A stretch of 64,000 nt of DNA from Candidatus Berkelbacteria bacterium (lineage in GTDB: Bacteria; Patescibacteriota; UBA1384; DTJR01), in assembly GCA_026397175.1 (NCBI GenBank), contig JAPLVK010000015.1, positions 4,996 through 68,995 on the forward strand, written 5' to 3'. Of the stretch, positions 6,604 to 57,948 are shown piece after piece (position 1 is the first letter of the stretch; each line of letters begins with the position of its first letter). Below the pieces are notes generated by a model. It saw only the letters and a list, made by a program, of their open reading frames with translations. It was not told the origin of the DNA and searched no databases. Made by a program: the position numbers and the translations under genes.

Positions 6604-6714
6604 AAATCAAACTTTCCGTTTTTTTCCCGACCAATTCGGCGGCGCGAAGCGCCGAAATGTATGGCTGAACAGGGTTTCCGCGCGCTTCGCGCGCGTTCAA
6701 GTGGAGGTTCGAGC
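6599..6714. repeat. IR1-L (about 115 bp); inverted partner at 9519-9633, about 5 mismatches
   Basis: Reverse complement aligns base-by-base with 9519-9633; begins inside the tRNA-Leu 3' end and covers the recombinase C-terminal codons. Confidence 0.85.
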
Positions 6715-7830
6715 CAAAGATTTCTTTGGCAACAACCTTTTTTGCTAAAAGGTTGTTATCCCTTGCAATTTTAACGAGGGTTAAAGAGACTTTTATCCAA
6801 TTTTGAAACGGTTCGAGCCAATTATTTTGCTTTTGTTCAATCCGCGCCATTTGCTCATCAAGCGACTTCTTTTCCAAAAGAAGTTTTGTTTTTTGTTCGC
6901 GATAAATCTCTCTTTCAATATCTTGCTCTAAATAGCCGTCAAGAAGTCGCTGTAATTTTGTATTGATAGCGTGGATTTTGTTTTGAGCTTTTTGAACAAA
7001 AGCAAAACAGGATTGGGCGGACATTTCCTTGTCTCTTTCCGCCATTTCTAAAAGTTTGTCCGCCCACTTCTGGCTCAAAGAAACTCTTTGAATAAGAGCT
7101 GATAACTGCCGATCCAATTCCTCTTCGCGAATATATGGCTGAGTACATTTAATTTTCTTTTTTGAACAACGATAATAAATATGTCCTTTTTGTTTTTCGG
7201 CAGTTATCATCATTCCACATTCGGCGCACTCAATAAGTCCACAAAATGCTTGTGGCTCATTTTTTTGCTTGCGTTGTGTTTTGCCTCGTTGTTTCAAAAC
7301 TTCTTGCGCCGAATCAAAAAGTTTCTTTGAAATGATTGGCTCGTATTTTCCTTCGTGAAGTTCGCCATCATATTTGAATAGTCCAGTATAAAAAGGATTT
7401 GAAAGGATAAAAGTCACCCTCGTCTTGTGGATTTTCTTTCCGCCGCGGGAAAGTATCCCGCGTTGCGCCAAAAAGTTCGAAATATCCTCGAGGCGTGATG
7501 CGCCTTCGGCATACAGTTCAAATGCTTCTTTAGTGATTTTTGCTTTCTTTCTGTCTACCACAATGGTTTTGGTGCGCACATCGTTTATGTAGCCGATTGG
7601 CGCAAGGCTTGGATATTCGCCTCGTCTTACTTTTTGGCGCAAACCCCGCTTGGTGTTTTCGGAAAGAGAATCCACATAGTATTTGCTTTGCCCAAAAGCA
7701 ATGTTCAACATAAATTTTCCTTGCGGCGTTGGTTCAAACCAAAATTGAGGAAACTTCAACGCCACAATACGCCCGCAATCAATCAAATAAATTATTTGTC
7801 CGCCATCAACAGAATTGCGCGCCAATCTGT

Positions 7831-9231: not shown

Positions 9232-9474
9232 TGGATGCCAAGCCAAAATTCCGTCCGCTTCGCCCTTTTCAATACGCTTTATCATTTTGCCGAAAATATG
9301 GCGGCCGGGAATTTTGGCAGATTGTTTTTCAATAAATGTTTCAACGATATTCAAATTTTCTTGTTTGGCAAAAGCGCGCAATTCTGTGATTTGTGCTTCG
9401 ATAGACAAAATCTGTTTATCCTCCACATCGGTGGACTTGCGGGCGTATAAGAAAAATTTATTTTGATTATTCAT
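9232..9474 (-). pseudogene. serine recombinase N-terminal fragment (catalytic Ser region YARKSTD), truncated by IS110
   Basis: MNNQNKFFLYARKSTD...GILAWHP aligns with residues 1-80 of the intact recombinase at 47585-49081; reads into IS sequence after WHP. Confidence 0.8.
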
Positions 9475-9518
9475 ATTTTTTTATTGGGCAAAGCAAATGC
9501 TTTAAATTGCAAGGGATT

Positions 9519-9633
9519 TCGAACCTCCGCCTGAACGCGCGCGAAGCGCGCGGAAACCCTGTTCAGCCATACTCCTCGGCGCTTCGCGCCGCTGAATTGG
9601 TCGGGAAAAAAACGGAAAGTTTGATTTTGGTGG
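9519..9633. repeat. IR1-R (inverted copy of 6599-6714)
   Basis: See IR1-L. Confidence 0.85.
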
Positions 9634-9778
9634 AATTATACGACTCCGCTCGAACTTTTTTTGAACGAAATTTTTAAAAACTTTTCAAATGAATTCGGCT
9701 CGGGCGGGCAAAAAGGAAGGGGGGTGGGGGGAAGGAATTTTTGCCCGCTCTCGCTTTCCCGACGCTACTGGATTTCGT
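9627..9778. repeat. IR2-L (about 152 bp); inverted partner at 12518-12669, 1 mismatch; contains motif GGAAGGGGGGTGGGGGGAAGGAATT
   Basis: Reverse complement matches 12518-12669; shares core TTTGGTGG with IR1-R. Confidence 0.9.
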
Positions 9779-9894
9779 ATTTCGCTTCGCGAAATGCACC
9801 GCTGGAACTTTACTATTTTTAATTTTCGGTATACTATCAAAGTAGATGAAAGGAAGTAGCACTTATACTTTAATTCTACTATCACAATATCAGT

Positions 9895-10092
9895 ATGTCA
9901 AATATTCAAAAAACACTTAGAAAACTCAGAGAAGCCAAGGGCTTGTCCCAAGAAAAATTGGCGAGATTGTCAGATGTCGCCAATAATACTATTATTAAAA
10001 TTGAAGGTGGCAAAAACCAAAATCCAACACTCGATACTCTCAAAAAAATTTCAAAAGCTCTTGAGGTGAGTGTTGACGATTTGATAAACTAA
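9895..10092 (+). CDS. HTH XRE-family transcriptional regulator
   Basis: GLSQEKLARLSDVANNTIIKIEGG helix-turn-helix. Confidence 0.7.
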   Translation: MSNIQKTLRKLREAKGLSQEKLARLSDVANNTIIKIEGGKNQNPTLDTLKKISKALEVSVDDLIN

Positions 10093-10152
10093 AGTAAAGT
10101 GCGGAACAAAAACCCGTTTTAAAAATGATTTTTATTAAGGAAGAAAACCATA

Positions 10153-11190
10153 ATGGTTAAAAACAATAAAACAACTAAGAAATGCCCGCATTGCAAGGAA
10201 GAAGTTTTAATAGATGCTCGAAAATGTAAGCATTGTGGTGAGTGGCTTGAGACAAAAGAAACTAAGAAGGGGGCTGAGGATGTGGTGCTAAGACAGCCCA
10301 ATGAAGAAGCTAAAAAAACTTCCAATAGTGGCTTCATCGGTTTAATTATTATCCTTGTTATTGTTTTCTTGTTTATGAGTTGGTCAACGCGGTTTATGAT
10401 TTTTGCCTTTTTATCTTTTGTGGCATTGCTGATTGGGTTAACAGAGCCAGACAGATTCAAAAAATTAATCAAAAAACCTACACGAAAAAATATTGGTTTA
10501 GTTTTTGGCTGTGCTGTTCTAGCATTCCTTATTTTATTTGGGATTACTACGCCAAAAAATCCGACTATTGCTTTTAATGATTTAAATGATTCAAGTAAGG
10601 AAGTAACGGTTGGCAATTTTGACATAAAAGGCAAAGTTAGCCCTGCTGATAGCGCTATAAAAATAAAAAAAGATAATAAGACATACATAACTACATCGAA
10701 ACCAGATAAAAATGGTAATTTTACCTATAATGTAGATTTGAATGAGGGAGATAATAATTTCTCATTTACCGCTGATAATCACGGCAAAACATTTTCTATC
10801 TCCAAAAAACTAGTTAGAAAACTTTCTCAAGAAGAAACAACCAAGAAAGATGCAGAAGCAAAAGCCAAGGCCGAAGAGGAAGCTAAGGCAAAAGCTGATG
10901 CTGATGCTAAAAAATCTAGATATGAGGCTGGTTCAGTAAATAAACTAAAAAATATTCAGCCAATTTTTCTTGGAACATCAAAGGACAACTGGACTAAATT
11001 ATCGAAGTATATTCTAGCTGGTGATGACACAGGAGTAAAAAATATGATCTATTCTGGAGAAGCGCTTATTGCTGACGGAGGATCACAAATAAAAACAATT
11101 GAATGGAATTGGGGTATATTTCATGTTCGAATTTTGGAAGGTACAAGCAAAGACAGTGAAGCTTGGGTTTCGGATACTTTTGTTGAATAA
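10153..11190 (+). CDS. membrane protein with N-terminal CxxC-x-CxxC zinc ribbon, conserved 2-TM module and lysine/alanine-rich extracellular region
   Basis: CPHCKEEV...CKHCGEW; TM module paralogous to the next gene. Confidence 0.5.
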   Translation: MVKNNKTTKKCPHCKEEVLIDARKCKHCGEWLETKETKKGAEDVVLRQPNEEAKKTSNSGFIGLIIILVIVFLFMSWSTRFMIFAFLSFVALLIGLTEPDRFKKLIKKPTRKNIGLVFGCAVLAFLILFGITTPKNPTIAFNDLNDSSKEVTVGNFDIKGKVSPADSAIKIKKDNKTYITTSKPDKNGNFTYNVDLNEGDNNFSFTADNHGKTFSISKKLVRKLSQEETTKKDAEAKAKAEEEAKAKADADAKKSRYEAGSVNKLKNIQPIFLGTSKDNWTKLSKYILAGDDTGVKNMIYSGEALIADGGSQIKTIEWNWGIFHVRILEGTSKDSEAWVSDTFVE

Positions 11191-11206
11191 CTTTTAAAGG
11201 AAAAAT

Positions 11207-12067
11207 ATGAACACATTATTTTTACTTCTCTTCCTTGCCTCATTTATTTGTTTAATTATTGGCTTAACAAAACCCGCTACTTTTTCTCGTTTTATCAAAG
11301 GAAAATCCGCTAGAAAAAATATCGGGTTGATTTTTGGCATTGCTACTTTAGTATTTTTCATTTTATATGTGGCGACGGCTAATACCAGTGATAAAAAAAC
11401 GACAACGCAATCGCCGAGTTCTACAAAAACCACAGCAAGCCAGGAAAGCAAAACTGTAGAACCGAAGATCGCCGCCGCTTATAAAACTGTTGCGACCGAA
11501 GATTTAAGCATGAAAGCATTGGGAAATAAAAAATTATCCGATTACTCTAGCTCGGAAATTTCTAAGTTGCCGACCGACAAACGGTACCAGTTCCGAATTG
11601 TTATCGAAAAAAATCTCGATCAAGACAGTATAAAGAAAATTATCGAGTCACTCATTAGCGATAAAAGATCCGAGGATAGTGATATTGATGAACTTACTAT
11701 CTTCATCTATGATGACGAAAAAGATGCCAAGGAACCATACACAATCGGGAAAGCTATCTGGTCGCCAGGTGGGGTTTGGGGAAGTGTAACGCCTGAAATT
11801 GCCAGTAGCAATAACCGTGCCAATTATATAACAAATTATGAGTTCGTTACAAAAACTACAACAAATACCCTTACCGACAGGGAAAAAGAAATAAGGAATG
11901 ACTATAACAATAAACTCGATGAGTTACTCGCTAAGCAAACAGAATGGTCTTCGGATTCATCAACTGATGATGCAATTAATAAAGAACTCGAAGATTACAT
12001 TATGAAAAAATATTCAATTACAAAAGATGAATTGGATAAAATCATGGTCAAAGGTTTAATACAATAA
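11207..12067 (+). CDS. membrane protein paralogous (TM module) to 10153-11190
   Basis: CLIIGLTKPATFSRFIKGKSARKNIGLIFGIATLVFFIL aligns with ALLIGLTEPDRFKKLIKKPTRKNIGLVFGCAVLAFLIL. Confidence 0.5.
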   Translation: MNTLFLLLFLASFICLIIGLTKPATFSRFIKGKSARKNIGLIFGIATLVFFILYVATANTSDKKTTTQSPSSTKTTASQESKTVEPKIAAAYKTVATEDLSMKALGNKKLSDYSSSEISKLPTDKRYQFRIVIEKNLDQDSIKKIIESLISDKRSEDSDIDELTIFIYDDEKDAKEPYTIGKAIWSPGGVWGSVTPEIASSNNRANYITNYEFVTKTTTNTLTDREKEIRNDYNNKLDELLAKQTEWSSDSSTDDAINKELEDYIMKKYSITKDELDKIMVKGLIQ

Positions 12068-12078
12068 AATTGTAAAAT

Positions 12079-12489
12079 ATGGCAAACGAAAATCAAAAAC
12101 CTATCCATAAATTACCGGAGTCAACGATCCGTATTATGGAAGAAGCCCAAAAATCATACAAACGCTTGGCTGGTAGCATAGCAAATATGGCGAGTATTCT
12201 TCCAAAATTTCCCAAAATTGACATCTCAAAATTTCAAATACTCGACCAGCAAGAACGTGAAATAGTTCCGCCACTGAATTACGATCTTATGCATGAACAG
12301 AATGAATGGAAGCGACATATAGAAATTTTGGATGTGCAAAATGTGGTAGTTGAGACACTATCAGGAATTTTGAAAGAACAAAAATCTACAACAAAACTAA
12401 CATTGTGTCTAAAAAAATTAACATGGGCCATCTTAATTTTGACAATGCTAGGAATTGTAGCAACAGTTATATTTAGCATCATGAAATAA
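12079..12489 (+). CDS. hypothetical protein with C-terminal TM anchor
   Basis: ORF with terminal hydrophobic helix. Confidence 0.35.
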   Translation: MANENQKPIHKLPESTIRIMEEAQKSYKRLAGSIANMASILPKFPKIDISKFQILDQQEREIVPPLNYDLMHEQNEWKRHIEILDVQNVVVETLSGILKEQKSTTKLTLCLKKLTWAILILTMLGIVATVIFSIMK

Positions 12490-12517
12490 TGCAAGCGATG
12501 CGCCAGCTTTGCTGGCA

Positions 12518-12669
12518 CGAAATCCAGTAGCGTCGGGAAAGCGAGAGCGGGCAAAAATTCCTTCCCCCCACCCCCCTTCCTTTTTGCCCGCCCGAGCAGA
12601 ATTCATTTGAAAAGTTTTTAAAAATTTCGTTCAAAAAAAGTTCGAGCGGAGTCGTATAATTCCACCAAA
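12518..12669. repeat. IR2-R (inverted copy of 9627-9778)
   Basis: See IR2-L. Confidence 0.9.
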
Positions 12670-47549: not shown

Positions 47550-47626
47550 GGGGTGGTAGCTCAATTGGCTAGAGCAATTCCCTGTCACGGAATAGGTTGA
47601 GGGTTCGAGTCCCTTCCATCCCGCCA
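47550..47626 (+). tRNA. tRNA-Asp (anticodon GTC)
   Basis: Acceptor GGGGTGG/CCATCCC, D-stem GCTC/GAGC, anticodon stem ATTCC/GGAAT with loop CTGTCAC, T-loop TTCGAGT, discriminator G, CCA. Confidence 0.85.
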
Positions 47627-49081
47627 GTTCGTATGAGAAGTTTTTTGGAATAAAATTCCCCACGGATTTTCAGGTTTGAGAGCGACAATTCCTGCCCTGA
47701 CAAGACGGTTCGAGCCGATCTTTTTCAAAAGCTCCGCTTTTGCCACAAAATTTTGAGATGTTTGTAGATTACTGGCTTGGTGAACCTCATTTACCCAATC
47801 TGTAAGCGGTTCGAGCCACAAATTGCCCTTGCGATTAAGACGGGCGATTTTTTGTTTTAGAGCGACTTTCTGCTCGACAAGTTCCGACTTTTTAGTTTGA
47901 TACTCTTCAGCTTCCAAAAGCCCATCTAAATGAGCGTCGAGCAGTTTAGAAAGCCGCTTGTTCAATATCTCAAGTTCTTTTCCGACTCCCTTTATCGCAA
48001 GGGCAGATGATTGGATGTTATCAGTTTTCCATATTTCAATTTGTTTTTGCATTTTATTTGTCCAATCATCTTTCAAAGCCACTTTTGAAAAAATCTTGTC
48101 AACTTGGCTTGTCAGCTTCTCTTCACGCACAAATTTTTGTGCGCAAACACTGTTCTTTTTGGTGCAACGATAATAGCGAAAAACAAGCCCCGACTTTTTG
48201 ATTTGTCGTTCACCAGTGATCGCCCGCCCGCACTCTCCGCAGTTAAATACTCCACGAAATGGGAAATATAAAAGTTCTTTTGTTTTTCGCGGGCGACTTC
48301 GATTTTGCAAAGTTTGTTGCACCAAATCAAAAGTGGCTTTGTCAACTAAAGGCTCGTGTTTGGCTTCGTAAGTTTCGCCACCATAGCTAAAAAGCCCGAT
48401 ATAAAATTTGTTTCGCAAAAGTTTTTCCAAAACAGAACAAGACAAACCAATTCTTCCACGTTGGCTTTTTAGCTTCAAAGAAAGCGATAAAGTTTCCAAA
48501 TCTTTCAGAGAATATTTCCCCGTTGAATATTTACAAAACAGTTTTTTGATAAGCGGGGCTTTTTCATTGTCGATATCGATTGTATGACTTCGCAAATTAT
48601 TCGTGTAGCCAATCGGCGCCCAGCCGGGCCATTCGCCTCGGCGGAGTTTTTGTCTTAAGCCCCGCTTAACATTCTCTGAAAGATTATCGATGTAATATTT
48701 AGCTTGACCAAAAGCAATTTGGAGCATAAACAAACCTTGGCTGGACGGCTCAAACCAGTAAGTTGGAAACCTTAGAGAGCACAACTTGCCCCTATCAATC
48801 AGATTGATAATTTGCCCGCCATCAACTGCGTTTCGAGCCAGACGATCGGGGTTCCACGAAATGATTCCGTCGGCCTCGTCGTTGACGATTTTTTCGAGCA
48901 TTAAATTAAAAATTGGGCGGCCCGGCTCTTTGGCCGTTTTTGCTTCGATAAGTTCCTCAACAATTTCCAAATTATTTTGGCGGGCAAATTCATGAAGTTC
49001 GGCAAGTTGCGCTTCAATAGACAATACCTGTCTTTCCTCGTCATCGGTAGATTTTCGAGCATAGAGTATATATCTATTCAA
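47585..49081 (-). CDS. large serine recombinase (resolvase-type catalytic domain, recombinase domain, zinc ribbon, coiled coil), apparently intact
   Basis: YARKSTD catalytic-Ser motif, CGECG/C-x-C zinc ribbon; ORF has no stop until inside tRNA-Asp, so the exact 3' end is uncertain. Confidence 0.85.
   Translation of the reverse strand: MNRYILYARKSTDDEERQVLSIEAQLAELHEFARQNNLEIVEELIEAKTAKEPGRPIFNLMLEKIVNDEADGIISWNPDRLARNAVDGGQIINLIDRGKLCSLRFPTYWFEPSSQGLFMLQIAFGQAKYYIDNLSENVKRGLRQKLRRGEWPGWAPIGYTNNLRSHTIDIDNEKAPLIKKLFCKYSTGKYSLKDLETLSLSLKLKSQRGRIGLSCSVLEKLLRNKFYIGLFSYGGETYEAKHEPLVDKATFDLVQQTLQNRSRPRKTKELLYFPFRGVFNCGECGRAITGERQIKKSGLVFRYYRCTKKNSVCAQKFVREEKLTSQVDKIFSKVALKDDWTNKMQKQIEIWKTDNIQSSALAIKGVGKELEILNKRLSKLLDAHLDGLLEAEEYQTKKSELVEQKVALKQKIARLNRKGNLWLEPLTDWVNEVHQASNLQTSQNFVAKAELLKKIGSNRLVRAGIVALKPENPWGILFQKTSHTNWRDGRDSNPQPIP
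47620..47722. repeat. recombinase-module IR-L; inverted partner at 49157-49286 (1 mismatch plus a 37-bp hairpin-bearing insertion in the partner)
   Basis: Reverse complement aligns with 49198-49286 and, after the insertion, with 49157-49170; begins at CCCGCCAG of the tRNA-Asp 3' end. Confidence 0.85.
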
Positions 49082-49156: not shown

Positions 49157-49286
49157 CACCGCTTTGCGGTGTCTGAAATGAATTTCAGGAATCGTCTTGT
49201 CAGGGCGGGAATTGTCGCTCTCAAACCTGAAAATCCGTGGGGAATTTTATTCCAAAAAACTTCTCATACGAACTGGCGGGGAATTC
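49157..49286. repeat. recombinase-module IR-R (inverted copy of 47620-47722)
   Basis: See IR-L. Confidence 0.85.
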
Positions 49287-49419
49287 TGAATGAAGCTCGA
49301 ATTTATTTTGAAAAGAATTTTTAGTAATGCTCGTGTCGCGCTTTGCGCGACACTCGCTCTCTGTTTTTCAAATTTCCTTTGGGTCGGGAAGGAGGGGGTT
49401 GGGGGGAGGAATTCGATTT
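49287..49419. repeat. cargo-module IR-L (about 133 bp); perfect inverted partner at 53532-53658; motif GGAAGGAGGGGGTTGGGGGGAGGAATT
   Basis: Reverse complement identical to 53532-53658; homologous to IR2 of element 1. Confidence 0.9.
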
Positions 49420-49421
49420 AT

Positions 49422-49949
49422 TTAACAAAAAAAGTTATTTGATCTCAGTTGTTCTTTTATTCTTAAAAGTTCAGATTGCGATATGATTTTTTCATCCTTC
49501 AAATAATCTAAGATAAATATCGTGTCCCTAAATTCCGCTTTATCAAATATTTTGATACTTTGTCTCAAGGCCTCATTTTTTGCACGCTTTTCATCAGCTA
49601 CAAAAACCGCTTCTAGTTCCTTCGCTAAAACCATAGCCGAAATCTCGCCCCTACCCAAACATTTTAACTCTTCTAGCCGTGCAAATAATTTTAAACTTAT
49701 AATCTGTTCGGGCGATTTAATTGAGATTTTACCCATGTTAATAATTTCTGTCAGAACAGCTAGCTTTTCGGAAAGCTCTGGCTTAAGAATGAAATTCGAA
49801 CTTATTCCTTCTTGTAATTCTTCAAAAACCTCTCTTGTTGTGATCAGATTACAGGGCAACTTTAAAATTAAATTAGTTCTCTCAACCCGTGCAAAGTTGC
49901 TTAGGACGTTATTATCAAAAACAAGAGTTTCATTCTCGATATTTTTCAT
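49422..49949 (-). CDS. PIN-like nuclease-fold protein (DUF4411-like), putative toxin/effector
   Basis: N-terminal LVFDNNVLSNF and GEISAMVLAKELEAVFVADE acidic-residue pattern typical of PIN folds; a COG2856-DUF4411 adjacency is recalled from memory. Confidence 0.5.
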   Translation of the reverse strand: MKNIENETLVFDNNVLSNFARVERTNLILKLPCNLITTREVFEELQEGISSNFILKPELSEKLAVLTEIINMGKISIKSPEQIISLKLFARLEELKCLGRGEISAMVLAKELEAVFVADEKRAKNEALRQSIKIFDKAEFRDTIFILDYLKDEKIISQSELLRIKEQLRSNNFFC

Positions 49950-50706
49950 CTCCCGCCCTCCTAATCTCAGCAACCAAATCTTTCGTTTCTTCGTAGCTCT
50001 TACGCAATAACTCAGCGAGCTTATCTAAGGTTATCATTTCTGTGAAATAGGCGTTAAATGCGAGTTTCAAATATTCACTTGGTAATTTTAATTCGCCATG
50101 CTCGACCGTCTTTTGTGGTTCATATCCAAGTTTTAAAGACAGAAAATTTAACCTGCTAGTTTCTAACAATTTAATTTTATAATCTTTGTCGAAACCATAT
50201 TTTAAATTATTCAGTTGATAAATTGTAGCTTGCCAGCTAACATCAAATTCATTGCGTATTCTAACAAGCTCTTCGTCTGTTAACTTATTTGACTTATTGT
50301 CCAACACTTCTTTGATGTAGGTTTTTACCCCGTTCCCTGGCATTAAAAAGTTAGCGGCAAAACAATCCGCTAACTTTTCATAGGTTGGCTTGGAACCCCC
50401 ATTGAATTCGATCAGTAGCGGTTGGGTTTCTTTATCTCTTAAATGGTGGCAATACTCGTGAACTGCAGTGAAATTTTGGTGACCTATAGAGCGATTACTG
50501 TTTACTAAAATACTCGAAAGATTTTTTTCTCTGTCGTAAAAAAATACTCCCGAAAATTCTTCCGAATCAACTGGCATTTTAACAACAAATATTCCCTGTC
50601 CTTCAAGCAGGGCAAAAAGATTTTTGATTGGGGCGTCATCAAGCCCTAGCTCTTTCCTCTTTGATTCAGAGAGCTGCCTTGCTTCGTCCAAATAATTAAT
50701 TGCCAT
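49930..50706 (-). CDS. ImmA/IrrE-family (COG2856) zinc metallopeptidase
   Basis: HEYCHH (HExxH) motif in an ImmA/IrrE-like context, downstream of an XRE regulator. Confidence 0.75.
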   Translation of the reverse strand: MAINYLDEARQLSESKRKELGLDDAPIKNLFALLEGQGIFVVKMPVDSEEFSGVFFYDREKNLSSILVNSNRSIGHQNFTAVHEYCHHLRDKETQPLLIEFNGGSKPTYEKLADCFAANFLMPGNGVKTYIKEVLDNKSNKLTDEELVRIRNEFDVSWQATIYQLNNLKYGFDKDYKIKLLETSRLNFLSLKLGYEPQKTVEHGELKLPSEYLKLAFNAYFTEMITLDKLAELLRKSYEETKDLVAEIRRAGDEKYRE

Positions 50707-51051
50707 TTATAACCTCTTCAAGGAATCAAAATCTTCACAGATTTTTTTAAATTCCAGTAAACTCTTTTTGCTTTGTTCCGACAATTTTTCGGTATTCCTA
50801 AAATGCATTACGGCCATCTCGAATTGGGGTATTTCGGAAAGTTTGCCTGAAATTATTTCGTTAGCTTCAATGCCATAGAGGTCGGCGAGACTAAATAGTT
50901 CGAAACTGTCAATTTTTCTCTTTCCCGATTCAATACCAATAATCGCCTGGCGAGTAAGTCCAAGCTCTTTAGCAACAAATTCTTGGCTAAAACCAAGCTT
51001 TTCGCGCAGATACTTAAGATTGCTTCCTATCTTTTCCAACAAAAGCTCCAT
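50707..51051 (-). CDS. HTH XRE-family transcriptional regulator
   Basis: GFSQEFVAKELGLTRQAIIGIESGKR helix-turn-helix. Confidence 0.75.
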   Translation of the reverse strand: MELLLEKIGSNLKYLREKLGFSQEFVAKELGLTRQAIIGIESGKRKIDSFELFSLADLYGIEANEIISGKLSEIPQFEMAVMHFRNTEKLSEQSKKSLLEFKKICEDFDSLKRL

Positions 51052-51153
51052 ATCCCCTCCTTTTTAATAATCTCAGTGTAGTTTTATTATACACAAATGT
51101 CAATATTTATGTTAGATTATATTACAACCGAATAATTATTTTATTTTAAGAAG

Positions 51154-52908
51154 ATGAAATACTGGGCTAAAGATAGAGAAGGCAATATTTATGAAAAATG
51201 TATTAGATGTGATTCGAATTCCAAAAAACATTTTGCTCGAGGTAGGTGCCATAACTGCTATCATAAATGGTTGGCTGATAATAATCCAGAATATAAAGAA
51301 AAGCTTCGAATAAAAGATAGATTAAAAGATAAAAGAAGAAGGCAAACAGAAAAGTTTAAAATTAAAGAAAGAGAAAAGGATAGAGCTAAACGAGTTAAAA
51401 AGGCCTATGAAGGTGAGACTAGTCACAAAAAAGAGGTTGAGTTGCTGCAAACCAAATATCACGAAGCAAATCGAAAAATCGATGAAGAGTTAAAATATAT
51501 TGAGCAGCAATCAGTAGCAGAAAAAGAAGAGGTGCATGAGGCATATGAATACATTAAAAAACTTGAATCAAGGATAGGTTTTTATGACGCGCCAAAAATA
51601 AAGTGTCCTTTTTGCAATACTGATTTTTTGTTTGAGTGGCCAAGGAAGTCAAAACCCATGCGAAGTCATCTAACAAAAAGCAATTGCCCGAACTGTAATT
51701 TTAATCCTGTGAGAGATGGGCTATGCATGAGATGCAATCGGGTCATAATCAACATAAAAGACTTTACTACAACGAACAATTATCCAATTTGCAATGACTG
51801 TTTACATATTATAAATAATCCGAGTAGATTTTTAGGGTTTGCAATTAAGGATTTCCATAATTACTGTGTAAAATGTGGAGCTAGATTAAGTTATAGAGTA
51901 GAGGAGCCTTCTTTGTGTTGGAATTGTAATGATCTATACAACGAAAAAGGGAAGGACCCGTATGAGTGTGACAAAGAATGGGTAGAAATAGAAACCGATG
52001 ATTCGGGCGGTGAATATCGGTTTGAAAGGCTTCCAATGTTAGAAGCTCCTTATACAGCAATTAAATATTTTTCTCAGCCGGGTTCTCCCAAGGATCACGA
52101 ATTTATTTTGAATTTAAAACATGAATTATCTTTAAGTTTAAAAATAGAGGATTTAGGAAATCCTTTAGGTTATCTGATGTATAAATCAACTATGTTCACA
52201 AGCAAAAATAAAGAGAAGATTTTAAATCGCATGAATCAGAAAATTGTAAAATGGGAGATAGAGAATGGTAGAAAAACTCTAGATTATTTTGGTAATGATT
52301 TGCAAACAACTCAAATATTTTCAGGAAATATCTCAAGACAAGAATACAGAGAATATAAATCGTCGATTATCGCAAGGTATAATCCCCGCAACTTGGGTTC
52401 AGACGATTCTCTGTCGAAAAAATTGACTGACGATGAAGTTGTCTCGATCAATATTGAAGGATTATCATTTTATAATTTACAACCTACGTTTCGGAAATTC
52501 CTAAATAGTTTAATTAGAGAAAGTGAAAATGAGATTAGGTTTGAAGTGGGCGTGCCTGCTATCGGCGAAGGTTGGGTTTCTGAAACAGAATTATTTCATA
52601 AAATTAAAGAAATTTGCGAGCAAGGTGGGTTAGATGCGATACACCACGCAAGACCAGAATGGCTTGGAATACAGCATCTGGATATATTTATTCCCAAGTT
52701 AAATATTGCAATCGAATATCAAGGAAAGCAACATAGTGAGCCAGTTGATTTCTTTGGTGGTGAAGAAGCTCACCTAAAAACTCTTGAAAGAGATAAAAAG
52801 AAAAAAGAACTTTGTGACCAGAATAACATTGAACTTAATTATGTTAATGAGGGTGATGATATAGAACTGTTGATTAAGGATTTACACGATCGTATTGTCC
52901 TTAAGTAG
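51154..52908 (+). CDS. multi-zinc-ribbon protein with C-terminal DUF559/Vsr-like PD-(D/E)xK endonuclease domain
   Basis: At least 6 CxxC pairs in the N-terminal 300 aa; C-terminal ...LDIFIPKLNIAIEYQGKQH... matches the D...(I/V)E(x)xG.QH pattern of DUF559 nucleases. Confidence 0.5.
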   Translation: MKYWAKDREGNIYEKCIRCDSNSKKHFARGRCHNCYHKWLADNNPEYKEKLRIKDRLKDKRRRQTEKFKIKEREKDRAKRVKKAYEGETSHKKEVELLQTKYHEANRKIDEELKYIEQQSVAEKEEVHEAYEYIKKLESRIGFYDAPKIKCPFCNTDFLFEWPRKSKPMRSHLTKSNCPNCNFNPVRDGLCMRCNRVIINIKDFTTTNNYPICNDCLHIINNPSRFLGFAIKDFHNYCVKCGARLSYRVEEPSLCWNCNDLYNEKGKDPYECDKEWVEIETDDSGGEYRFERLPMLEAPYTAIKYFSQPGSPKDHEFILNLKHELSLSLKIEDLGNPLGYLMYKSTMFTSKNKEKILNRMNQKIVKWEIENGRKTLDYFGNDLQTTQIFSGNISRQEYREYKSSIIARYNPRNLGSDDSLSKKLTDDEVVSINIEGLSFYNLQPTFRKFLNSLIRESENEIRFEVGVPAIGEGWVSETELFHKIKEICEQGGLDAIHHARPEWLGIQHLDIFIPKLNIAIEYQGKQHSEPVDFFGGEEAHLKTLERDKKKKELCDQNNIELNYVNEGDDIELLIKDLHDRIVLK

Positions 52909-52995
52909 TCCATCTACCCCTTATCCGTCTTGACAGTCAGGGATGTATCTATCAACATTGAATCTGATCTATTTAATAATGTGATAGGAGAAAAA

Positions 52996-53160
52996 ATGTA
53001 TCAGAAGGAATGTAAGTATTTTTACGAAAAAGAAGTTCGGACGCGCGAGATAGGGATGGTCAGGGGTTTCGCACTCGAACTCGTTCCAGTGTGTGAAAAA
53101 GTCGATGCATTCGAAAAACAACTACTTGAATGCGAAGATTGCGAGTTATATGAAGAATAA
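52996..53160 (+). CDS. small Cys-rich (zinc-ribbon-like) protein
   Basis: RBS TAGGAGAA before ATG 52996; CKYF...CEKVD...CEDCE. Confidence 0.3.
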   Translation: MYQKECKYFYEKEVRTREIGMVRGFALELVPVCEKVDAFEKQLLECEDCELYEE

Positions 53161-53464
53161 CGAACCAAATAAAAGACATGAAAAAATGAAAAGATGTTTA
53201 AATGTTATTTCGGTAATACTCTTGGGCTTACTGTATTTATTTTGTGGATATATAATATTGTCTCTCATTGGCGACAAAAAACCGATTCTGAATTACTACG
53301 AATTGATTTTTGTCATTCTTGCTCTTGGCATTATGTTTGTCGTAAGTATGGTTTTAAATTTCATGAGTGACAACCCATCGTCCGTGAATATCAATTTTTT
53401 TAAATTGTTTGGAGTAAAGTTTGACTACAAAGACAGGGGTCAAAATATCGAAAATAGCAAATGA
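53093..53464 (+). CDS. small 2-TM membrane protein
   Basis: ORF with two hydrophobic helices. Confidence 0.3.
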   Translation: MKKSMHSKNNYLNAKIASYMKNNEPNKRHEKMKRCLNVISVILLGLLYLFCGYIILSLIGDKKPILNYYELIFVILALGIMFVVSMVLNFMSDNPSSVNINFFKLFGVKFDYKDRGQNIENSK

Positions 53465-53531: not shown

Positions 53532-53658
53532 GAATTCCTCCCCCCAACCCCCTCCTTCCCGACCCAAAGGAAATTTGAAAAACAGAGAGCGAGTGTCGCG
53601 CAAAGCGCGACACGAGCATTACTAAAAATTCTTTTCAAAATAAATTCGAGCTTCATTC
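53532..53658. repeat. cargo-module IR-R (inverted copy of 49287-49419)
   Basis: See cargo-module IR-L. Confidence 0.9.
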
Positions 53659-53765
53659 GGAGCTTCGGGTGGCCTTCGGCCACCAAAATAATCAACGAAG
53701 GGTGCGACCCGAAGTTTTCCGAAGGTAACCCAAAGCTTTAGCGGAGGGTTTAACGAAGGGTTGCG

Positions 53766-54008
53766 ATGTATTATGTTTATTTGCTCGAGCTTAAAGACCA
53801 GACTATTTATACCGGATCAACACCCGATATTAAGAACAGAATAAAAGAACATAATGACGGCAAATGCATATTTACAAGAGACCATAGACCGTTAAAATTG
53901 ATCTGGTACTGTGCTTTTCCTAACCGGCTAGCGGCAAGAAAATTTGAAAATTACTTAAAGAAAGGTTCGGGGCAGGCATTCAGAAATAAGCATTTAATTG
54001 ACGCGTGA
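53766..54008 (+). CDS. GIY-YIG-domain small nuclease
   Basis: YVYLLEL...YTGSTPDIKNRIKEHN GIY-YIG motif. Confidence 0.65.
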   Translation: MYYVYLLELKDQTIYTGSTPDIKNRIKEHNDGKCIFTRDHRPLKLIWYCAFPNRLAARKFENYLKKGSGQAFRNKHLIDA

Positions 54009-54067: not shown

Positions 54068-54130
54068 GTCCTGTTACAGACCAAAAGCATAGTGTCTTTT
54101 AACGGGGGTAAAAGTGTAGCGTCCCCTATG
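54068..54130 (-). repeat. REP-like repeat, inverted orientation (about 90% match to reverse complement of 57781-57848)
   Basis: Shares GGGTAAAAGTGTAGCGTCCCC core and the 38-bp CCATTAGAAGACACTATGCTTTCGGTCTCTAACAGG block. Confidence 0.75.
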
Positions 54131-54221
54131 GTTTAACTAACCGCCCCGCCTCTTCCATACCTGTTATTGTGGTGCTATAATTAAATTAATAACCAGCTGA
54201 TATAAACTTATTTATAATTAA

Positions 54222-54842
54222 ATGAAAGAAGAGCTAAAAGATATAAAGAACAATATTGAGATTATGAATCTCATTAAGTATTGCCAAGGTTATATAAAGC
54301 TCGTCAATCCCTCATTCAACAGATTCAGAATAAATACTGACCCTATTGAAGAAAAGTATCTAAGTACCGATATTTTATATCAAGACAGCGACGAGGAAGA
54401 TGAATTTGAAATAAATCTGAAAGAGTTTTATGAGAATGACCCTAAAAACGTTCCAGAAGAAGCCAAAGAAGAATACGGAAAGCAGAAAGAACTCGCACAA
54501 CAGCTCGAGCAGATAAAGAATCGTTTTAATATAAGTGAGTATACAAAGCAGGTCAACCTTAATTTCGGATATTTTAAGGTAGAGGTGCCCGAGCCGGAAA
54601 TCGATGAATTCTCTGAGGATGATACCGAAGAAGATAAGCCCAAAAAGAAAAAATCTGACATCTATCCATTGTTCTCTTTACCAATTAAAGTTATAGCCGA
54701 CAGGCAATTTTCAATAAAGTTGAAGGATGTGAACATTATTCCAAACATCGGTTTCTTATTCGATGTTCTTGGTGAAGAAAAATTTTATGAATTTGCCGAC
54801 TTCATAAACAAACAAGAGATTGAAGGAGCTCTGAGGTTTTAG
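54222..54842 (+). CDS. hypothetical acidic protein flanked by REP-like repeats
   Basis: ORF only. Confidence 0.4.
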   Translation: MKEELKDIKNNIEIMNLIKYCQGYIKLVNPSFNRFRINTDPIEEKYLSTDILYQDSDEEDEFEINLKEFYENDPKNVPEEAKEEYGKQKELAQQLEQIKNRFNISEYTKQVNLNFGYFKVEVPEPEIDEFSEDDTEEDKPKKKKSDIYPLFSLPIKVIADRQFSIKLKDVNIIPNIGFLFDVLGEEKFYEFADFINKQEIEGALRF

Positions 54843-54914
54843 GGGGTTTTAGGGGACGCTACACTTTTACCCTGATGATTGGAGATAACAGCATTTTTGT
54901 GTTACTATTAGCAC
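54841..54914 (+). repeat. REP-like repeat (GGGGACGCTACACTTTTACCC core plus GATTGGAGATAACAGCAT block) immediately upstream of the Y1 transposase
   Basis: Core shared with 57791-57811; reverse complement at 54100-54120 and 55583-55603. Confidence 0.8.
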
Positions 54915-55574
54915 ATGTCTCGTCAACCAAGATTTTTACCACCGGATAATTATTATCACATTATGAATCGCGGTAATAATGGACAGCTAATCTTTACTTG
55001 CGATGACGATTATCAGTATTATTTGGAAAAACTTTCCGATCTAAAGGTCGAGCATCTCTTCGACTTAATCCACTATTGCTTGATGGGTACACACACGCAC
55101 ATGCTGGTTAAAATATCCAAGCAAACCGACTTCTCAATATTTTCCAAACGATTAAACTTGAGTTATGCCAACTACTACAAAAAAGAATATGGCTTGATTG
55201 GTCATCTTTGGCAAGGTAGGTACAAAAGCCAGCTAATCAGTAGTGATGCGTATTTTATGCAATGCGGCAAATATATTGAGCTGAATCCTTTGAGGGCCGG
55301 AATTGTTCAGAAACCAGGGGACTACAAATTTTCCAGCTACAATCACTATGCTTTTTCAAAAAATAATTCACTGATTACTGATGACATATTTTACAAAGAG
55401 CTTGGCCCCAATGAAGAAGAAAGGGGAAGGATGTATAGAGACCTAACCATTTCTGAAATAATTGCCGATACTATGAATGGGAGGAAAATAGCGATAGGTA
55501 CAAGCAAATTCGTGTATAATACAAACAAGAAGAATAAATATCATATTAAGAACAAGAACTCTGCTTATCGCTAA
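54915..55574 (+). CDS. IS200/IS605-like Y1 (HuH) transposase of the REP-associated tyrosine transposase (RAYT) type
   Basis: HTHMLV (HuH) and GHLWQGRYKS...YIELNPLRAG motifs closely resemble RAYT/IS200-like proteins. Confidence 0.75.
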   Translation: MSRQPRFLPPDNYYHIMNRGNNGQLIFTCDDDYQYYLEKLSDLKVEHLFDLIHYCLMGTHTHMLVKISKQTDFSIFSKRLNLSYANYYKKEYGLIGHLWQGRYKSQLISSDAYFMQCGKYIELNPLRAGIVQKPGDYKFSSYNHYAFSKNNSLITDDIFYKELGPNEEERGRMYRDLTISEIIADTMNGRKIAIGTSKFVYNTNKKNKYHIKNKNSAYR

Positions 55575-55576
55575 AG

Positions 55577-55628
55577 ATCAGGGTAAAAGTGTAGCGTCCC
55601 CGATTCTCATAGCGTCCCCGATTCTCAA
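55577..55628 (-). repeat. REP-like repeat (inverted core) with internal tandem duplication of GTAGCGTCCCCGATTCTCA
   Basis: Sequence comparison with the other copies. Confidence 0.75.
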
Positions 55629-55687
55629 CAAACAAACACTAATTTTGATAAAATAAAAAAGTAATTATAAATTATAAAGGAGGATCG

Positions 55688-55822
55688 ATGGCTCTAAAAA
55701 AGATTGCGAAAAAAACTGCGTCTTCTATCGGCAATACCACGAAAAAGGGTGTCAAAGACATTGGCAAAGCCGTCCGCAAAGGCATCAAAGACACGAAGAA
55801 AACCATCAAAAAAACTCTTTAA
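55688..55822 (+). CDS. small lysine-rich protein (44 aa)
   Basis: RBS AAGGAGG 8 nt upstream of ATG; below the ORF-track size cutoff. Confidence 0.3.
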   Translation: MALKKIAKKTASSIGNTTKKGVKDIGKAVRKGIKDTKKTIKKTL

Positions 55823-56026
55823 CAAATAGCACTAACAACGAATTCTTTAAATAGGTTTTAGCTGTGGTATTTTGTTTCATTTTTACCCTCATAAGGAGTG
55901 GGAGGATCTACGGGGTAGGGGACGCTTTAAACTCCACCTGCCGGGTGGAGTTTTGGTGAATACGGGGATGGGATCATTGAATTTTGCTTCAGTTAAGAGT
56001 AGTTTATTATAGAGGTAAAAATTAAT

Positions 56027-56659
56027 ATGCAAAATTTATTTTTAACATCATCTATCCAAACAGTTGCTAAGGATGTCGCAAAGCGTCTTGACAAATCGGT
56101 CAAGAAATTTTTGTTTATTATTACTGCGTCCGAAGTTGAAACGGGCGACAAGGAGTGGCTCCGTCTTGATAGACAGGGTGTAGTTGATGCCGGATATAAT
56201 GTGGAAGATTATTCTATTTCCGGTAAAACCCTCGCGCAGATTGTCGGTAAATTAGCCGAAGTCGATGGTGTTGTAATGGCAGGTGGGAATACATTTTATC
56301 TTTTGCAGGAACTTCAGCAAACCAAGAGTATGAATTTATTTAGAAAATTTGTTTCTGATGGCAAGGTTTATATCGGATCATCTGCCGGCTCCATTGTTGC
56401 CGGGCCGGATATCTATCCGGTTAGACGGCTCGACAAAATAAGCCGAGCCCCAAAGTTAAAAGGATACAAAGGATTAACGCTCACGGATGTCGTCATATTT
56501 CCACACTGGGGATCGGATCATTTTCAGGATGCCTATCTGAGACAGCGAATGCATGACAACTATAATCTCGATCACAAATTAGTTTTGCTTACCGACAATC
56601 AATATCTCATCGTCGACGGCAAGAATCTGCAGTTTGTGGACGTGGAGAAGGACGAATAG
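56027..56659 (+). CDS. peptidase E-like (S51 family) dipeptidase
   Basis: IGSSAGS catalytic-Ser context and overall S51 pattern. Confidence 0.65.
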   Translation: MQNLFLTSSIQTVAKDVAKRLDKSVKKFLFIITASEVETGDKEWLRLDRQGVVDAGYNVEDYSISGKTLAQIVGKLAEVDGVVMAGGNTFYLLQELQQTKSMNLFRKFVSDGKVYIGSSAGSIVAGPDIYPVRRLDKISRAPKLKGYKGLTLTDVVIFPHWGSDHFQDAYLRQRMHDNYNLDHKLVLLTDNQYLIVDGKNLQFVDVEKDE

Positions 56660-57208
56660 ATGGCAATAAAAATCATATATTTTGTACATGGCACCACAAC
56701 GGATAATGAGCAGGAGATATCTTCAGGCTGGAAAGATGTTGAACTCTCCGACCTTGGAGTCAAGCAATCCATAGAATTAAAAGACAAGGTTGATATAAGC
56801 AGGTTCGATGTGGTTTTTTGCTCGGATCTAAAGCGCGCTATGCATTCGGCAGAATTAACTTTTGACGGAACCGTGCCGATAAAACCGGATGCGCGACTTC
56901 GTGAATGTAGCTACGGCGATTACAACGGTAAATCATCTGAAATTGTTGAGCCAATTCAGGAAGAACATATTGACAAACCGTTTTCAAATGGCGAAAGTTA
57001 CGAGGATGTAAAGAAAAGAATTTCGGATTTTTTGGATGATTTAAAGAAAAACTATGATGGAAAGCATATTGCCATCGTTGCTCACAAAGCTCCGCAGTTA
57101 GCACTCAATGTTCTGTTAAAAAATATGACTTGGAATGAGGCTTTTGCCAACGACTGGCGAAAAACTAAATCCTGGCAGCCGGGGTGGAAATATGAAATAC
57201 CTAGTTAA
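56660..57208 (+). CDS. histidine phosphatase superfamily (phosphoglycerate mutase-like) protein
   Basis: N-terminal IYFVHGTT (RHG-like) and downstream His. Confidence 0.6.
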   Translation: MAIKIIYFVHGTTTDNEQEISSGWKDVELSDLGVKQSIELKDKVDISRFDVVFCSDLKRAMHSAELTFDGTVPIKPDARLRECSYGDYNGKSSEIVEPIQEEHIDKPFSNGESYEDVKKRISDFLDDLKKNYDGKHIAIVAHKAPQLALNVLLKNMTWNEAFANDWRKTKSWQPGWKYEIPS

Positions 57209-57776
57209 GATTGATCGAATAATGGCATGGGTGCTTTTCGCATCGATGCTTCTTTATTTTATTTCCGGCTATGGAATGACCAAGGGGATCATCGATCAGA
57301 ACTTTGCAGCCAAGCTTCATCTTTCATATTTGACCTATATTATTTTAGTTGCATTTGTTTTTCACAGCGCTTACGCGATTCGCCTGGCACTGATTCGCTG
57401 GAAGATGTGGAATGGGATAGGAAAACTTTTGTGGGCGATGTTTTATATTTTCTTCGTTGTCGGATTTGTATATGTAGATAAGGTTTTTGAGAAATCTTCT
57501 CCGGTTCAAAGTCCAACATCTATTGGCAACAATTCAGCGGCGACTACTAGCTTGGTTAAAACTTTTACGATTGTCGAGCTTAGCAAGTATAATGGCCAAA
57601 ACGGTAACCCTGCTTATGTCGCTGTCGACGGAGGTGTTTACGATCTTACGGGAGTATTTCGAAACGGATCGCATTTCTCGCATTTTGCCGGAACCGAACT
57701 CACAAATGCTTTTTATTCTCAACATGCCAAAAGTTATCTCTCGAAATATCCGGTCGTAGGAATGCTAACGCGCTGA
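57192..57776 (+). CDS. membrane protein with C-terminal cytochrome b5-like heme/steroid-binding domain
   Basis: Start chosen at the Met with a GGTGGA RBS; C-terminal FTIVELSKYNG...YVAVDGGVYDLT pattern. Confidence 0.5.
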   Translation: MKYLVKIDRIMAWVLFASMLLYFISGYGMTKGIIDQNFAAKLHLSYLTYIILVAFVFHSAYAIRLALIRWKMWNGIGKLLWAMFYIFFVVGFVYVDKVFEKSSPVQSPTSIGNNSAATTSLVKTFTIVELSKYNGQNGNPAYVAVDGGVYDLTGVFRNGSHFSHFAGTELTNAFYSQHAKSYLSKYPVVGMLTR

Positions 57777-57780
57777 TTTA

Positions 57781-57888
57781 AGGGGTATAGGGGACGCTAC
57801 ACTTTTACCCCCATTAGAAGACACTATGCTTTCGGTCTCTAACAGGGATTGGAGATAACAGCATCTTTTTGTTATTATTGCTATACGC
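57781..57888 (+). repeat. REP-like repeat (longest copy: core plus 38-bp block plus GATTGGAGATAACAGCAT block)
   Basis: See other copies. Confidence 0.8.
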
Positions 57889-57948
57889 CTCGCCAACCTA
57901 CGATTTAGCCCCAATAAGAAAGTACCCTTAAATCAATAAATATTTAAA

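Follow-up and report, generated by a model that had tools for sequence, protein, structure and literature searches.

A putative protease-gated toxin/defence cassette in the cargo slot of a serine-recombinase element from Candidatus Berkelbacteria

Introduction

The mobile element ICEBs1 carries an XRE repressor and an M78 anti-repressor in the gene order immR-immA-int. A toxin system with a related regulator, RosmerTA (RmrT/RmrA), was reportedly described by Millman in 2022. CapH and CapP regulate CBASS and further defence operons in response to DNA damage; typically, their genes lie upstream of the immune operon under their control and are encoded on its opposite strand (Lau et al., bioRxiv 10.1101/2022.04.27.489752). 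The ImmA-antitoxin node has been reported with PIN-like toxins (PMC10440598), and three-component HTH-DUF955(M78)-PIN systems were predicted by Matelska et al. 2017 (PMC5499597).

Here we analyse a locus within 64,000 nucleotides of Candidatus Berkelbacteria DNA (the window) that shares features with each of these systems. Its four-gene cassette is rather probably exchangeable cargo encoding a toxin/defence module that a repressor controls and a protease gates; we infer this mechanism by analogy with CapH/CapP, ImmR/ImmA, IrrE/DdrO and RosmerTA. As with CapH/CapP, the genes for an M78 zinc peptidase and for a small XRE HTH protein that is extended at its C terminus are adjacent, and the pair is divergent from an effector gene with which it shares a promoter region of 102 bp. 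Unlike CapH/CapP, the partner is a single zinc-ribbon Vsr-like nuclease rather than CBASS, the regulator operon carries an extra PIN gene, and the best PADLOC matches are to PDC-M69B and RmrA instead of capP.

RosmerTA (Ernits 2023, PMC10440598) likewise places an HTH and an ImmA-type peptidase beside a toxin gene, and both the XRE and M78 proteins match RmrA profiles. RmrA is, however, one fused protein, whereas the cassette encodes HTH and peptidase separately, has no RmrT match and adds a second, divergent nuclease. The Matelska class has the same three domains in co-directional abutting or overlapping genes and a PIN protein of the COG2405/DUF3368 type; that class is predicted only, and its description (PMC5499597) includes neither a divergent zinc-ribbon nuclease nor an inverted-repeat-flanked slot. 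The type of system to which the triad belongs, an HTH-M78-PIN three-component, Rosmer-like toxin-antitoxin, had already been predicted.

Results

Organization of the four-gene cassette

All four cassette ORFs were found in the ORF list of the window at the positions given for them beforehand:

49422–49949, minus strand: PIN-like (COG2405/DUF3368-type) predicted RNase toxin, 175 aa; the mechanical ORF reaches 49973
49930–50706, minus strand: M78 (ImmA/IrrE/CapP-like) zinc metallopeptidase, 258 aa
50707–51051, minus strand: XRE-family HTH repressor (CapH/ImmR-like), 114 aa
51154–52908, plus strand: 584-aa multi-zinc-ribbon protein with a Vsr/DUF559-like PD-(D/E)XK nuclease domain

The M78 start codon abuts the XRE stop codon, and 20 nt are shared between the M78 and PIN genes; the three genes constitute a single operon with translational coupling. 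Position 49949 is more probably the PIN start than 49973, because it follows an AGGAGGG Shine-Dalgarno sequence, is used by NCBI and by orthologues, and gives the 20-nt overlap. Conserved acidic or histidine residues are kept in both predicted nucleases, the PIN-like and the 584-aa protein.

The whole cassette recurs in a second metagenome (contig L001), whose four proteins are 42–73% identical to those of the window. The same HTH-M78-PIN triad is found in L001, L088 and L089, in the last two with an unrelated divergent partner. The PIN family comprises only 4 protein clusters, and the full-length 584-aa architecture about 5, in multi-billion-protein collections; the cassette genes are rare, carried by a mobile element, and accessory rather than core.

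The XRE regulator and the M78 peptidase resemble CapH/CapP and RmrA

Both regulatory assignments made in the preliminary description, an XRE regulator and an HExxH metallopeptidase, are borne out. The XRE protein matches Pfam HTH_3 (8.6e-14), PADLOC capH across the whole profile (4e-9) and PDC-M69A (9e-8), as well as the C.AhdI controller protein (7e-5). The peptidase matches Pfam Peptidase_M78 (2.4e-13) and, in PADLOC, PDC-M69B (2e-20), RmrA (1e-19) and capP (2.9e-16), and its profile finds CapP (7t5t, 2e-7) and IrrE (3dte, 2e-6) in the PDB. It has the motif HEYCHH, and 18 relatives share H83, E84, H87 and E110 without exception, the residues of an intact HExxH...E site. The PADLOC RmrA profile is divided between the two proteins, with positions ~3–110 matched by XRE and ~120–340 by M78. 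A metagenome scan with the M78 protein as query returned no relatives, and those found in viral contigs are all distant.

The PIN-like protein belongs to a very small family

A PIN fold with conserved acidic active-site residues is supported for the third protein of the operon, as had been proposed; its accompanying assignment to DUF4411 (PF14367) was rejected, there being no Pfam match, and the protein is instead probably COG2405/DUF3368-like. DUF3368 (PF11848) is listed by the source database for 4/4 members of the PIN family and for the L001, L088 and L089 orthologues, and was not among the protein's own hmmscan matches at E<=10. PADLOC matched it to PDC-S70, which like PDC-M69 is a candidate system only, and not to any RmrT model, with its gene adjoining and overlapping that of M78. 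The family profile found nothing significant among PDB sequences. Its structural model is of low confidence (pLDDT 63) because only 4 sequences exist.

The 584-aa protein couples zinc ribbons to a Vsr-like nuclease

The 584-aa protein has 8 CxxC motifs (residues 16, 32, 151, 178, 191, 213, 238 and 255), where at least six had been noted. Its N-terminal half consists of a zinc finger, a coiled coil (~33–138) and a zinc-ribbon region (~143–280), and its C-terminal half of an alpha/beta middle domain (~285–465) and the nuclease (~470–584). The preliminary description had called the latter a DUF559 domain. This holds for the fold, which is DUF559/Vsr-like (Vsr-like PD-(D/E)XK), and fails for the profile: neither DUF559 (PF04480) nor Vsr matched the protein or its 24 + 98 relatives in Pfam, where the sole match among the relatives was a weak one to DUF2726 (4/98 at 1e-4). 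The 584-aa protein itself returned nothing in Pfam, NCBIfam and PADLOC scans, and its family profile nothing significant among PDB sequences.

Fold comparators of the nuclease domain are Vsr, DUF559 (NGO0050, 3hrl) and the EDxHD homing endonuclease I-Bth0305I. Unlike Vsr and DUF559 proteins, the domain falls into a large family of its own, with ~13,700 clusters, that is associated with mobile genetic elements (phages, plasmids, islands) and covered by no Pfam model; it is preceded by a conserved alpha/beta domain and, rarely, by an N-terminal part of four zinc ribbons and a coiled coil.

Members of this wider nuclease family also occur in transposon-rich regions and in phage structural modules, at homing-endonuclease-like positions. 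The 584-aa protein could itself be a selfish free-standing (homing-type) endonuclease, or else a Vsr-like repair enzyme, with the triad a mere neighbour. We regard this as very unlikely. A scan of viral contigs recovered the C-terminal domain only and never the full architecture, and the gene stands free in the cargo slot, in no conserved gene, intron or intein context. Moreover, its few close relatives lie beside a capH-like HTH gene and DUF4238 (L002), the triad (L001) or, for a 62%-identical homologue on the same element family, bSEFIR (L003; 5.9e-107). A relative of the C-terminal domain, P0016, adjoins a type I restriction-modification system plus Mrr.

The divergent genes share a conserved control region

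The triad operon and the 584-aa gene share an unusually conserved control region of 102 bp:

51052–51153, no strand: divergent regulatory region between the XRE start (51051, minus strand) and the 584-aa start (51154, plus strand)
51077–51093: operator-like site O1, TGTA-N9-TACA
51110–51126: operator-like site O2, TGTT-N9-TACA
51103–51098 and 51091–51086, minus strand: promoter-like hexamers TTGACA and TATAAT (promoter scan)

Both pairs of operator half-sites are invariant in an alignment of 4 cassettes, and perfect TGTA-N9-TACA occurs 2 times in the window against 0.28 expected. Over positions 51052–51128 the window and L001 hardly differ, whereas the flanking coding sequences are ~70% identical. 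An exact-match scan with the conserved operator region found nothing. Upstream of the 584-aa gene, the promoter scan gave no match to the sigma-70 consensus. Because the triad also has unrelated divergent partners in L088 and L089, the operator-like sites may serve autoregulation of the triad only, with the 584-aa gene perhaps outside co-regulation.

The cassette is cargo of a probable tRNA-integrating element

The cassette lies in the second of two such elements in the window (element 2), which has the following parts:

47550–47626, plus strand: tRNA-Asp(GTC), the probable integration target (ARAGORN)
47585–49081, minus strand: large serine recombinase, 498 aa
47620–47711, no strand: IR-A arm at the tRNA end, overlapping the last 7 nt of tRNA-Asp and the recombinase 3' end
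49189–49280, no strand: IR-A arm upstream of the recombinase, 92 nt, 98% complementary to 47620–47711
49285–49414, no strand: recombinase-proximal IR-B arm, 130 nt, 99% complementary to 53532–53661
53532–53661, no strand: distal IR-B arm, the right end of element 2

The recombinase matches Resolvase (6e-22), Recombinase (2e-9) and Zn_ribbon_recom (1.7e-8) in Pfam and the integrase family phrog_95 (2e-75), and nearly all of its 157 relatives are from CPR genomes. IR-B flanks the cassette, confirming that it sits in an inverted-repeat-bounded mobile module, and sequence related to it makes up the two ends of contig L001 and the end of L003. Junction analysis indicates that the 49189–49280 arm of IR-A and IR-B together make up an inverted attP-like junction. 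Recombinase domains and tRNA overlap are present in both elements 1 and 2. In element 1 a 7-nt core, CACCAAA, is directly repeated at 6599–6605 and 12663–12669; at the right end of element 2, no clear core repeat and no displaced copy of the tRNA-Asp 3' end were found.

The carrier is a member of a family of large-serine-recombinase elements that integrate at tRNA genes and are widespread in CPR/Patescibacteria. In this family an inverted attP copy sits between recombinase and cargo, so each is bracketed by inverted repeats, with arms of 60–370 nt at 90–100% identity. The same architecture was found in 58/62 testable loci, including a closed 1.44-Mb chromosome, and we therefore rejected an assembly artefact as the source of the repeats. 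In 27 sister elements the equivalent slot holds mostly restriction-modification genes, plus other defence genes, and the cargo has been swapped between recombinases that are 90–93% identical. The slot is rapidly exchanged, inverted-repeat-flanked and rich in restriction-modification genes.

The XRE-M78-(PIN)-recombinase order on one strand mirrors immR-immA-int, and the triad occurs repeatedly with serine recombinases that integrate at tRNA genes. Like the ICEBs1 pair, XRE and M78 could therefore control the element, switching on the recombinase and excision after DNA damage, with the 584-aa protein serving the element's life cycle. We consider this quite improbable. Unlike ImmR/ImmA of ICEBs1, the pair occupies an exchangeable slot rather than the backbone: most sister elements have no M78 gene, carrying restriction-modification systems instead, and the exchange of cargo between such similar recombinases makes the triad cargo. 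A structured inverted repeat of ~330 nt also separates the PIN gene from the recombinase, and in L003 the cargo is oriented opposite to the recombinase, which argues against fixed read-through into the recombinase gene.

The carrier architecture was a less expected result of the analysis. It recalls Hin in having a recombinase gene between inverted repeats, the Gin G segment in having cargo between inverted repeats, and integrons in its rapid cargo exchange at a fixed slot. Unlike Hin/Gin-type invertible segments and integron or RMCE-like platforms, it uses a large serine integrase at tRNA 3' ends, and its repeats are 60–370 nt long and jointly form an inverted attP copy. An enhancer or attC-like feature was not identified in the carrier. 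Searches of the open-access PMC and bioRxiv literature returned nothing relevant on this architecture in CPR, which is no proof of novelty. The carrier may, tentatively, be an undescribed mobile platform whose three cores (attL, inverted attP and attR) would allow excision, cargo inversion and cargo swap. A platform of this kind could possibly, if somewhat doubtfully, perform integron-like or RMCE-like cassette exchange specialized for defence genes in reduced genomes, and the XRE/M78/PIN genes with the zinc-ribbon nuclease might conceivably be one of its circulating cassettes.

A model for repressor removal and effector release

In the toxin/defence module that we favour, an XRE dimer or tetramer would occupy both operator-like sites, overlapping the promoter hexamers, and so repress the triad operon, with the 584-aa gene probably repressed too. 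A stress or infection signal, which for CapP and IrrE is single-stranded DNA or DNA damage, would activate the M78 peptidase. M78 would then cleave XRE, allowing expression or release of the effectors. The PIN protein would, like VapC, cleave RNA, and the zinc ribbons and coiled coil of the 584-aa protein would bind or sense nucleic acid while its Vsr-like domain cuts DNA. Growth arrest or destruction of invading DNA would follow, and the carrier may in addition be stabilized by addiction.

A defence/toxin role is supported by the PADLOC matches, the cassette of L001, the bSEFIR neighbour and the restriction-modification-dominated sister slots; against it stand the lack of any PADLOC match to the 584-aa protein, the candidate status of PDC-S70 and PDC-M69, the unrelated divergent partners of the triad in L088 and L089, the negative promoter scan for the 584-aa gene, the phage and transposon-rich contexts of the wider nuclease family and, for the PIN protein, the low-confidence model and the hmmscan that did not list DUF3368. 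The preliminary description had come to the same reading, and it is upheld by the support for PIN and DUF559/Vsr-like folds in genes that are not core.

Addiction could also be all that the triad provides, XRE/M78 being the antitoxin and PIN the toxin that stabilize the element, with no anti-phage role and with the 584-aa gene as unrelated cargo. Such triads are classed as TA-like in the literature (PMC5499597, PMC10440598), an NCBIfam scan gave a partial match to the spr1629 repressor/antitoxin family, and the triad recurs with different partners on serine-recombinase elements (window, L001, L088 and L089). Toxin-antitoxin and defence functions are not exclusive, however, RosmerTA being both (PMC10440598). 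In 2 samples, moreover, the 584-aa gene and the triad have stayed together and the control region that they share is near-identical, and the slot otherwise holds defence genes. Pure addiction is on balance unlikely.

CRISPR systems are scarce in CPR bacteria, whose genomes are tiny; in the window no CRISPR-like array was seen, in agreement with the preliminary description. For CPR immunity, a protease-gated toxin/defence cassette would extend the repressor-removal logic of CapH/CapP- and Rosmer-type systems to a new effector, in which multiple zinc ribbons are combined with a Vsr-like nuclease domain from a family lacking a Pfam model. The cargo slot of this common CPR element could be a place to mine new defence genes, because of its fast turnover and the mostly restriction-modification systems inside it, and to study a possible recombinase-driven cassette exchange.

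Two further ORFs of uncertain status, both taken from the ORF list, lie within the cargo:

52930–53160, plus strand: 76-aa ORF
53093–53464, plus strand: 123-aa ORF with predicted membrane segments

The 76-aa ORF has no family match in Pfam, PADLOC and NCBIfam scans. The 123-aa ORF has matches to membrane proteins, all of them weak (Pfam, NCBIfam), and in L001 and L003 its place is taken by unrelated small ORFs or bSEFIR.

Operon structure of the triad

All four ORFs of the preliminary description were found exactly where it had placed them (locus tags NTZ65_02415 to NTZ65_02430, on a 123.8-kb contig of a Candidatus Berkelbacteria MAG), and its interpretation is supported overall, with corrections needed at the family level. 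The cassette comprises the following features.

50707-51051, minus strand: XRE regulator; HTH_3 match, 8.6e-14
49930-50706, minus strand: M78 metallopeptidase with HEYCHH motif; Peptidase_M78 match, 2.4e-13
From 49949, minus strand: PIN-like gene (175 aa) with ribosome-binding site AGGAGGG
51154-52908, plus strand: 584-aa gene
51077-51093 and 51110-51126: TGTA-N9-TACA-type sites, from a four-cassette alignment

The profile matches and the motif bear out the claimed XRE regulator and metallopeptidase, and residues H83, E84, H87 and E110 of M78 are unchanged in 18 relatives. The M78 start codon immediately adjoins the XRE stop codon, making the triad a three-gene translationally coupled operon. 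Position 49949 is the most likely start of the PIN-like gene, which then shares 20 nt with the M78 gene.

The PIN-like protein had been described as PIN-fold-like and linked to DUF4411. As a single sequence its Pfam match is weak and under the cut-off (PIN_5, 0.03). Independent evidence of several kinds nevertheless converges on a predicted PIN fold: a match to PADLOC candidate family PDC-S70 (5e-8), the listing of PF11848 (DUF3368/COG2405) by the source database for the protein and all its relatives, a match of two of the four family members to the PIN-TPR-GreABC model (2.6e-5), and invariance of D12, E40, E44, E102 and D119. DUF4411 is ruled out, its model being unmatched. This is a very rare family: 5.8 billion sequences yielded 4 clusters.

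A rare predicted zinc-ribbon nuclease

The 584-aa protein had been described as an unusual fusion of at least six CxxC zinc ribbons to a DUF559/Vsr-like nuclease. We counted eight CxxC motifs and retain the zinc-ribbon/Vsr-like reading, but not Pfam DUF559, since the protein lacks a match to any Pfam, NCBIfam or PADLOC model. PHROG families, some annotated as homing or HNH endonucleases, match residues ~455-577 at up to 1e-26. An AlphaFold model built from 24 sequences (pLDDT 80) places an N-terminal zinc finger at the start of the chain, followed by a long coiled coil (residues ~33-138), a zinc-ribbon region with low confidence at 189-234, an alpha/beta middle domain and the C-terminal domain. 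Across 98 relatives W474, E477, D510, E521, G524, H527, F534, G536, D547 and K550 of the C-terminal domain are invariant, in keeping with an active PD-(D/E)XK-type site.

An exhaustive HMMER search returned 13,739 representative clusters, nearly all with only the C-terminal, or the middle and C-terminal, domains; the full architecture is present in only ~5. Among sequence records, 102 from phages and 51 from plasmids contain the C-terminal domain, nearly always annotated 'hypothetical protein'; it is also present at 147 IMG/VR loci. This nuclease domain (window 52471-52905, residues ~440-584) represents a very large family without a Pfam model, frequently fused to TerB_N, TPR/HEAT repeats or zinc ribbons.

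The neighbours of close 584-aa relatives are the triad (window and L001, a Logan contig), a capH-like HTH gene with a DUF4238 gene (contig L002) or a bSEFIR defence gene (contig L003; 5.9e-107). One more distant relative, sharing the C-terminal domain alone, lies beside type I R-M and Mrr. Further distant relatives are located in a phage-like region that contains DruA, between transposases or within a phage structural module. The wider domain family is therefore linked to mobile elements rather than specifically to defence.

A conserved control region

L001 carries all four cassette genes arranged as in the window, with protein identities of 73% (PIN), 65% (M78), 72% (XRE) and 42% (large protein), and terminates in an inverted repeat of the cassette-flanking kind. 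The operon structure and the conservation of the cassette are directly visible in these data. The divergent intergenic region is near-identical between the two, and the flanking coding DNA ~70% identical. Aligning both with L088 and L089, triads with other divergent partners, revealed two invariant TGTA-N9-TACA-type sites 33 bp apart, with a TTGACA reading towards XRE between them. Perfect TGTA-N9-TACA occurs only twice in the 64-kb window, against 0.28 expected. The two aligned sites are the likely XRE operators.

HTH-M78-PIN three-component TA-like systems have been predicted already (PMC5499597), and PIN toxins are associated with ImmA-type antitoxins, namely RmrA of RosmerTA (PMC10440598). 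CapH/CapP pairs are encoded upstream of the defence operon that they control, on the opposite strand, and are DNA-damage-responsive (bioRxiv 10.1101/2022.04.27.489752). The window XRE and M78 match PADLOC capH/capP, the two halves of RmrA, and PDC-M69A/B, and the M78 profile retrieves CapP and IrrE structures. Based on these parallels we propose that XRE would occupy the two operators and repress the divergent promoters; a signal would switch on M78, which would cut XRE, whereupon the PIN RNase and the zinc-ribbon DNase would be expressed or released. XRE binding and cleavage, the kind of signal and the activity of either nuclease are all inferred. The chief uncertainty is XRE control of the 584-aa gene, because the triad is also found with unrelated partners. 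The triad belongs to a class predicted before; what is new is its combination with a rare zinc-ribbon Vsr-like nuclease across a common conserved control region, a variant of CapH/CapP- or Rosmer-type systems.

At a further locus (L090:113-6774) an M78 gene (55% identical) and an HTH partner, without a PIN gene, lie beside a 1191-aa helicase-nuclease matching PADLOC PDC-S37 and Hhe and Pfam MTES_1575/DUF559, another case of an XRE/M78-type regulator pair adjoining a nuclease effector.

An exchangeable cargo slot

The cassette is enclosed by inverted repeats, as claimed; these are 130 nt long (99%), and no CRISPR-like array is visible within the 64-kb window, also in line with the preliminary description. 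The carrier, element 2, and element 1 are laid out as follows.

Element 2, in order: tRNA-Asp; IR-A, 47620-47711; large serine recombinase; IR-A', 49189-49280; IR-B, 49285-49414; cargo; IR-B', 53532-53661
Element 1, 6517-12669: at tRNA-Leu, same plan
C-rich/G-rich motif: 9713-9735 and 12560-12582 (element 1); 49385-49410 and 53536-53560 (element 2); L088 ends

The survey covered 80 relatives of the recombinase in GTDB genomes, nearly all CPR (loci L008-L087). A tRNA gene lies at the 3' end of the recombinase in 61 of 70 testable loci, IR-A is present in 58 of 62, and an adjacent IR-B, enclosing 0.35-9.1 kb, in 24 of 37; the arms mostly overlap by 3-12 nt. Contigs break <=450 nt upstream of the recombinase gene in 21 cases. 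An assembly artefact as source of the repeats is ruled out by a closed 1.44-Mb chromosome containing one of these loci. On the other strand, the internal A'/B junction of element 1 reads as right-end arm, 7-nt core CACCAAA and left-end arm, by sequence an inverted attP copy. Together they make up a family, widespread in CPR, of tRNA-integrating elements with large serine recombinases, in which IR-A brackets the recombinase gene, IR-B brackets variable cargo and an inverted attP lies at the internal junction. The searchable literature, of limited coverage, yielded no account of such an architecture.

Defence-related genes dominate the cargo of 27 sister elements: type II and IIG restriction-modification (BglI, DpnI, AlwI and SfiI endonucleases; D12, N4/N6 and C5 methyltransferases; Eco57I), controller and capH-like HTH proteins, MTES_1575, pPIWI-associated nuclease, DUF2188 and LexA-like proteins. 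Recombinases 90-93% identical in DNA carry unrelated cargo, in some cases keeping similar IR-B arms. L003 has an IR-A 97% identical to that of the window (L003:3072-3353 versus 49162-49414 and 47620-47711), and its cargo (584-aa homologue and bSEFIR) is reversed relative to the recombinase, which suggests that the segment inverts or inserts in either orientation. The L088 triad sits between IR-B arms of element-1 type. The slot hence behaves like a site whose defence cargo is exchangeable and probably invertible.

Additional features of the elements and their flanks

The element 1 recombinase gene (6491-9474) is interrupted by a 395-aa ORF (8011-9198) resembling an IS110-family transposase, leaving a C-terminal part at 6491-7837 and an N-terminal part at 9139-9474; the element is probably immobile by itself. 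The motif common to the IR-B arms of both elements and L088 reads CCTTCCCCCCACCCCCCTTCC in element 1, with a close variant in element 2, and its G-rich strand could form a G-quadruplex or a protein-binding site. No clear core repeat was seen at the right end of element 2, and its internal junction holds 6-7 nt present at neither outer end. Just outside element 2, at 53662-53692, a hairpin (GGTGGCC-TTC-GGCCACC, then AAAAT) resembles the tRNA-Leu end plus core used by element 1 (GGGCACCAAAAT) and may represent an attachment site, either decayed or secondary.

Beyond the right end lies a stand-alone 80-aa GIY-YIG domain protein (53766-54008; 4.2e-16). Within 54070-57900, an IS200-like Y1 transposase gene (54915-55574; Y1_Tnp, 7.8e-12) is surrounded by several copies of a REP-like repeat (GGGTAAAAGTGTAGCGTCCCC and complement) in differing orientations, resembling a REP/RAYT-type arrangement. 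Larger repeats of 52-60 nt pair 54070-54129 with 57787-57846 and 54877-54928 with 57847-57898. A 172-aa ORF (6045-6563) immediately upstream of element 1 ends within tRNA-Leu and encodes an HNH-like motif (CEECGW...NHKNGN...NLEILCPNCH).
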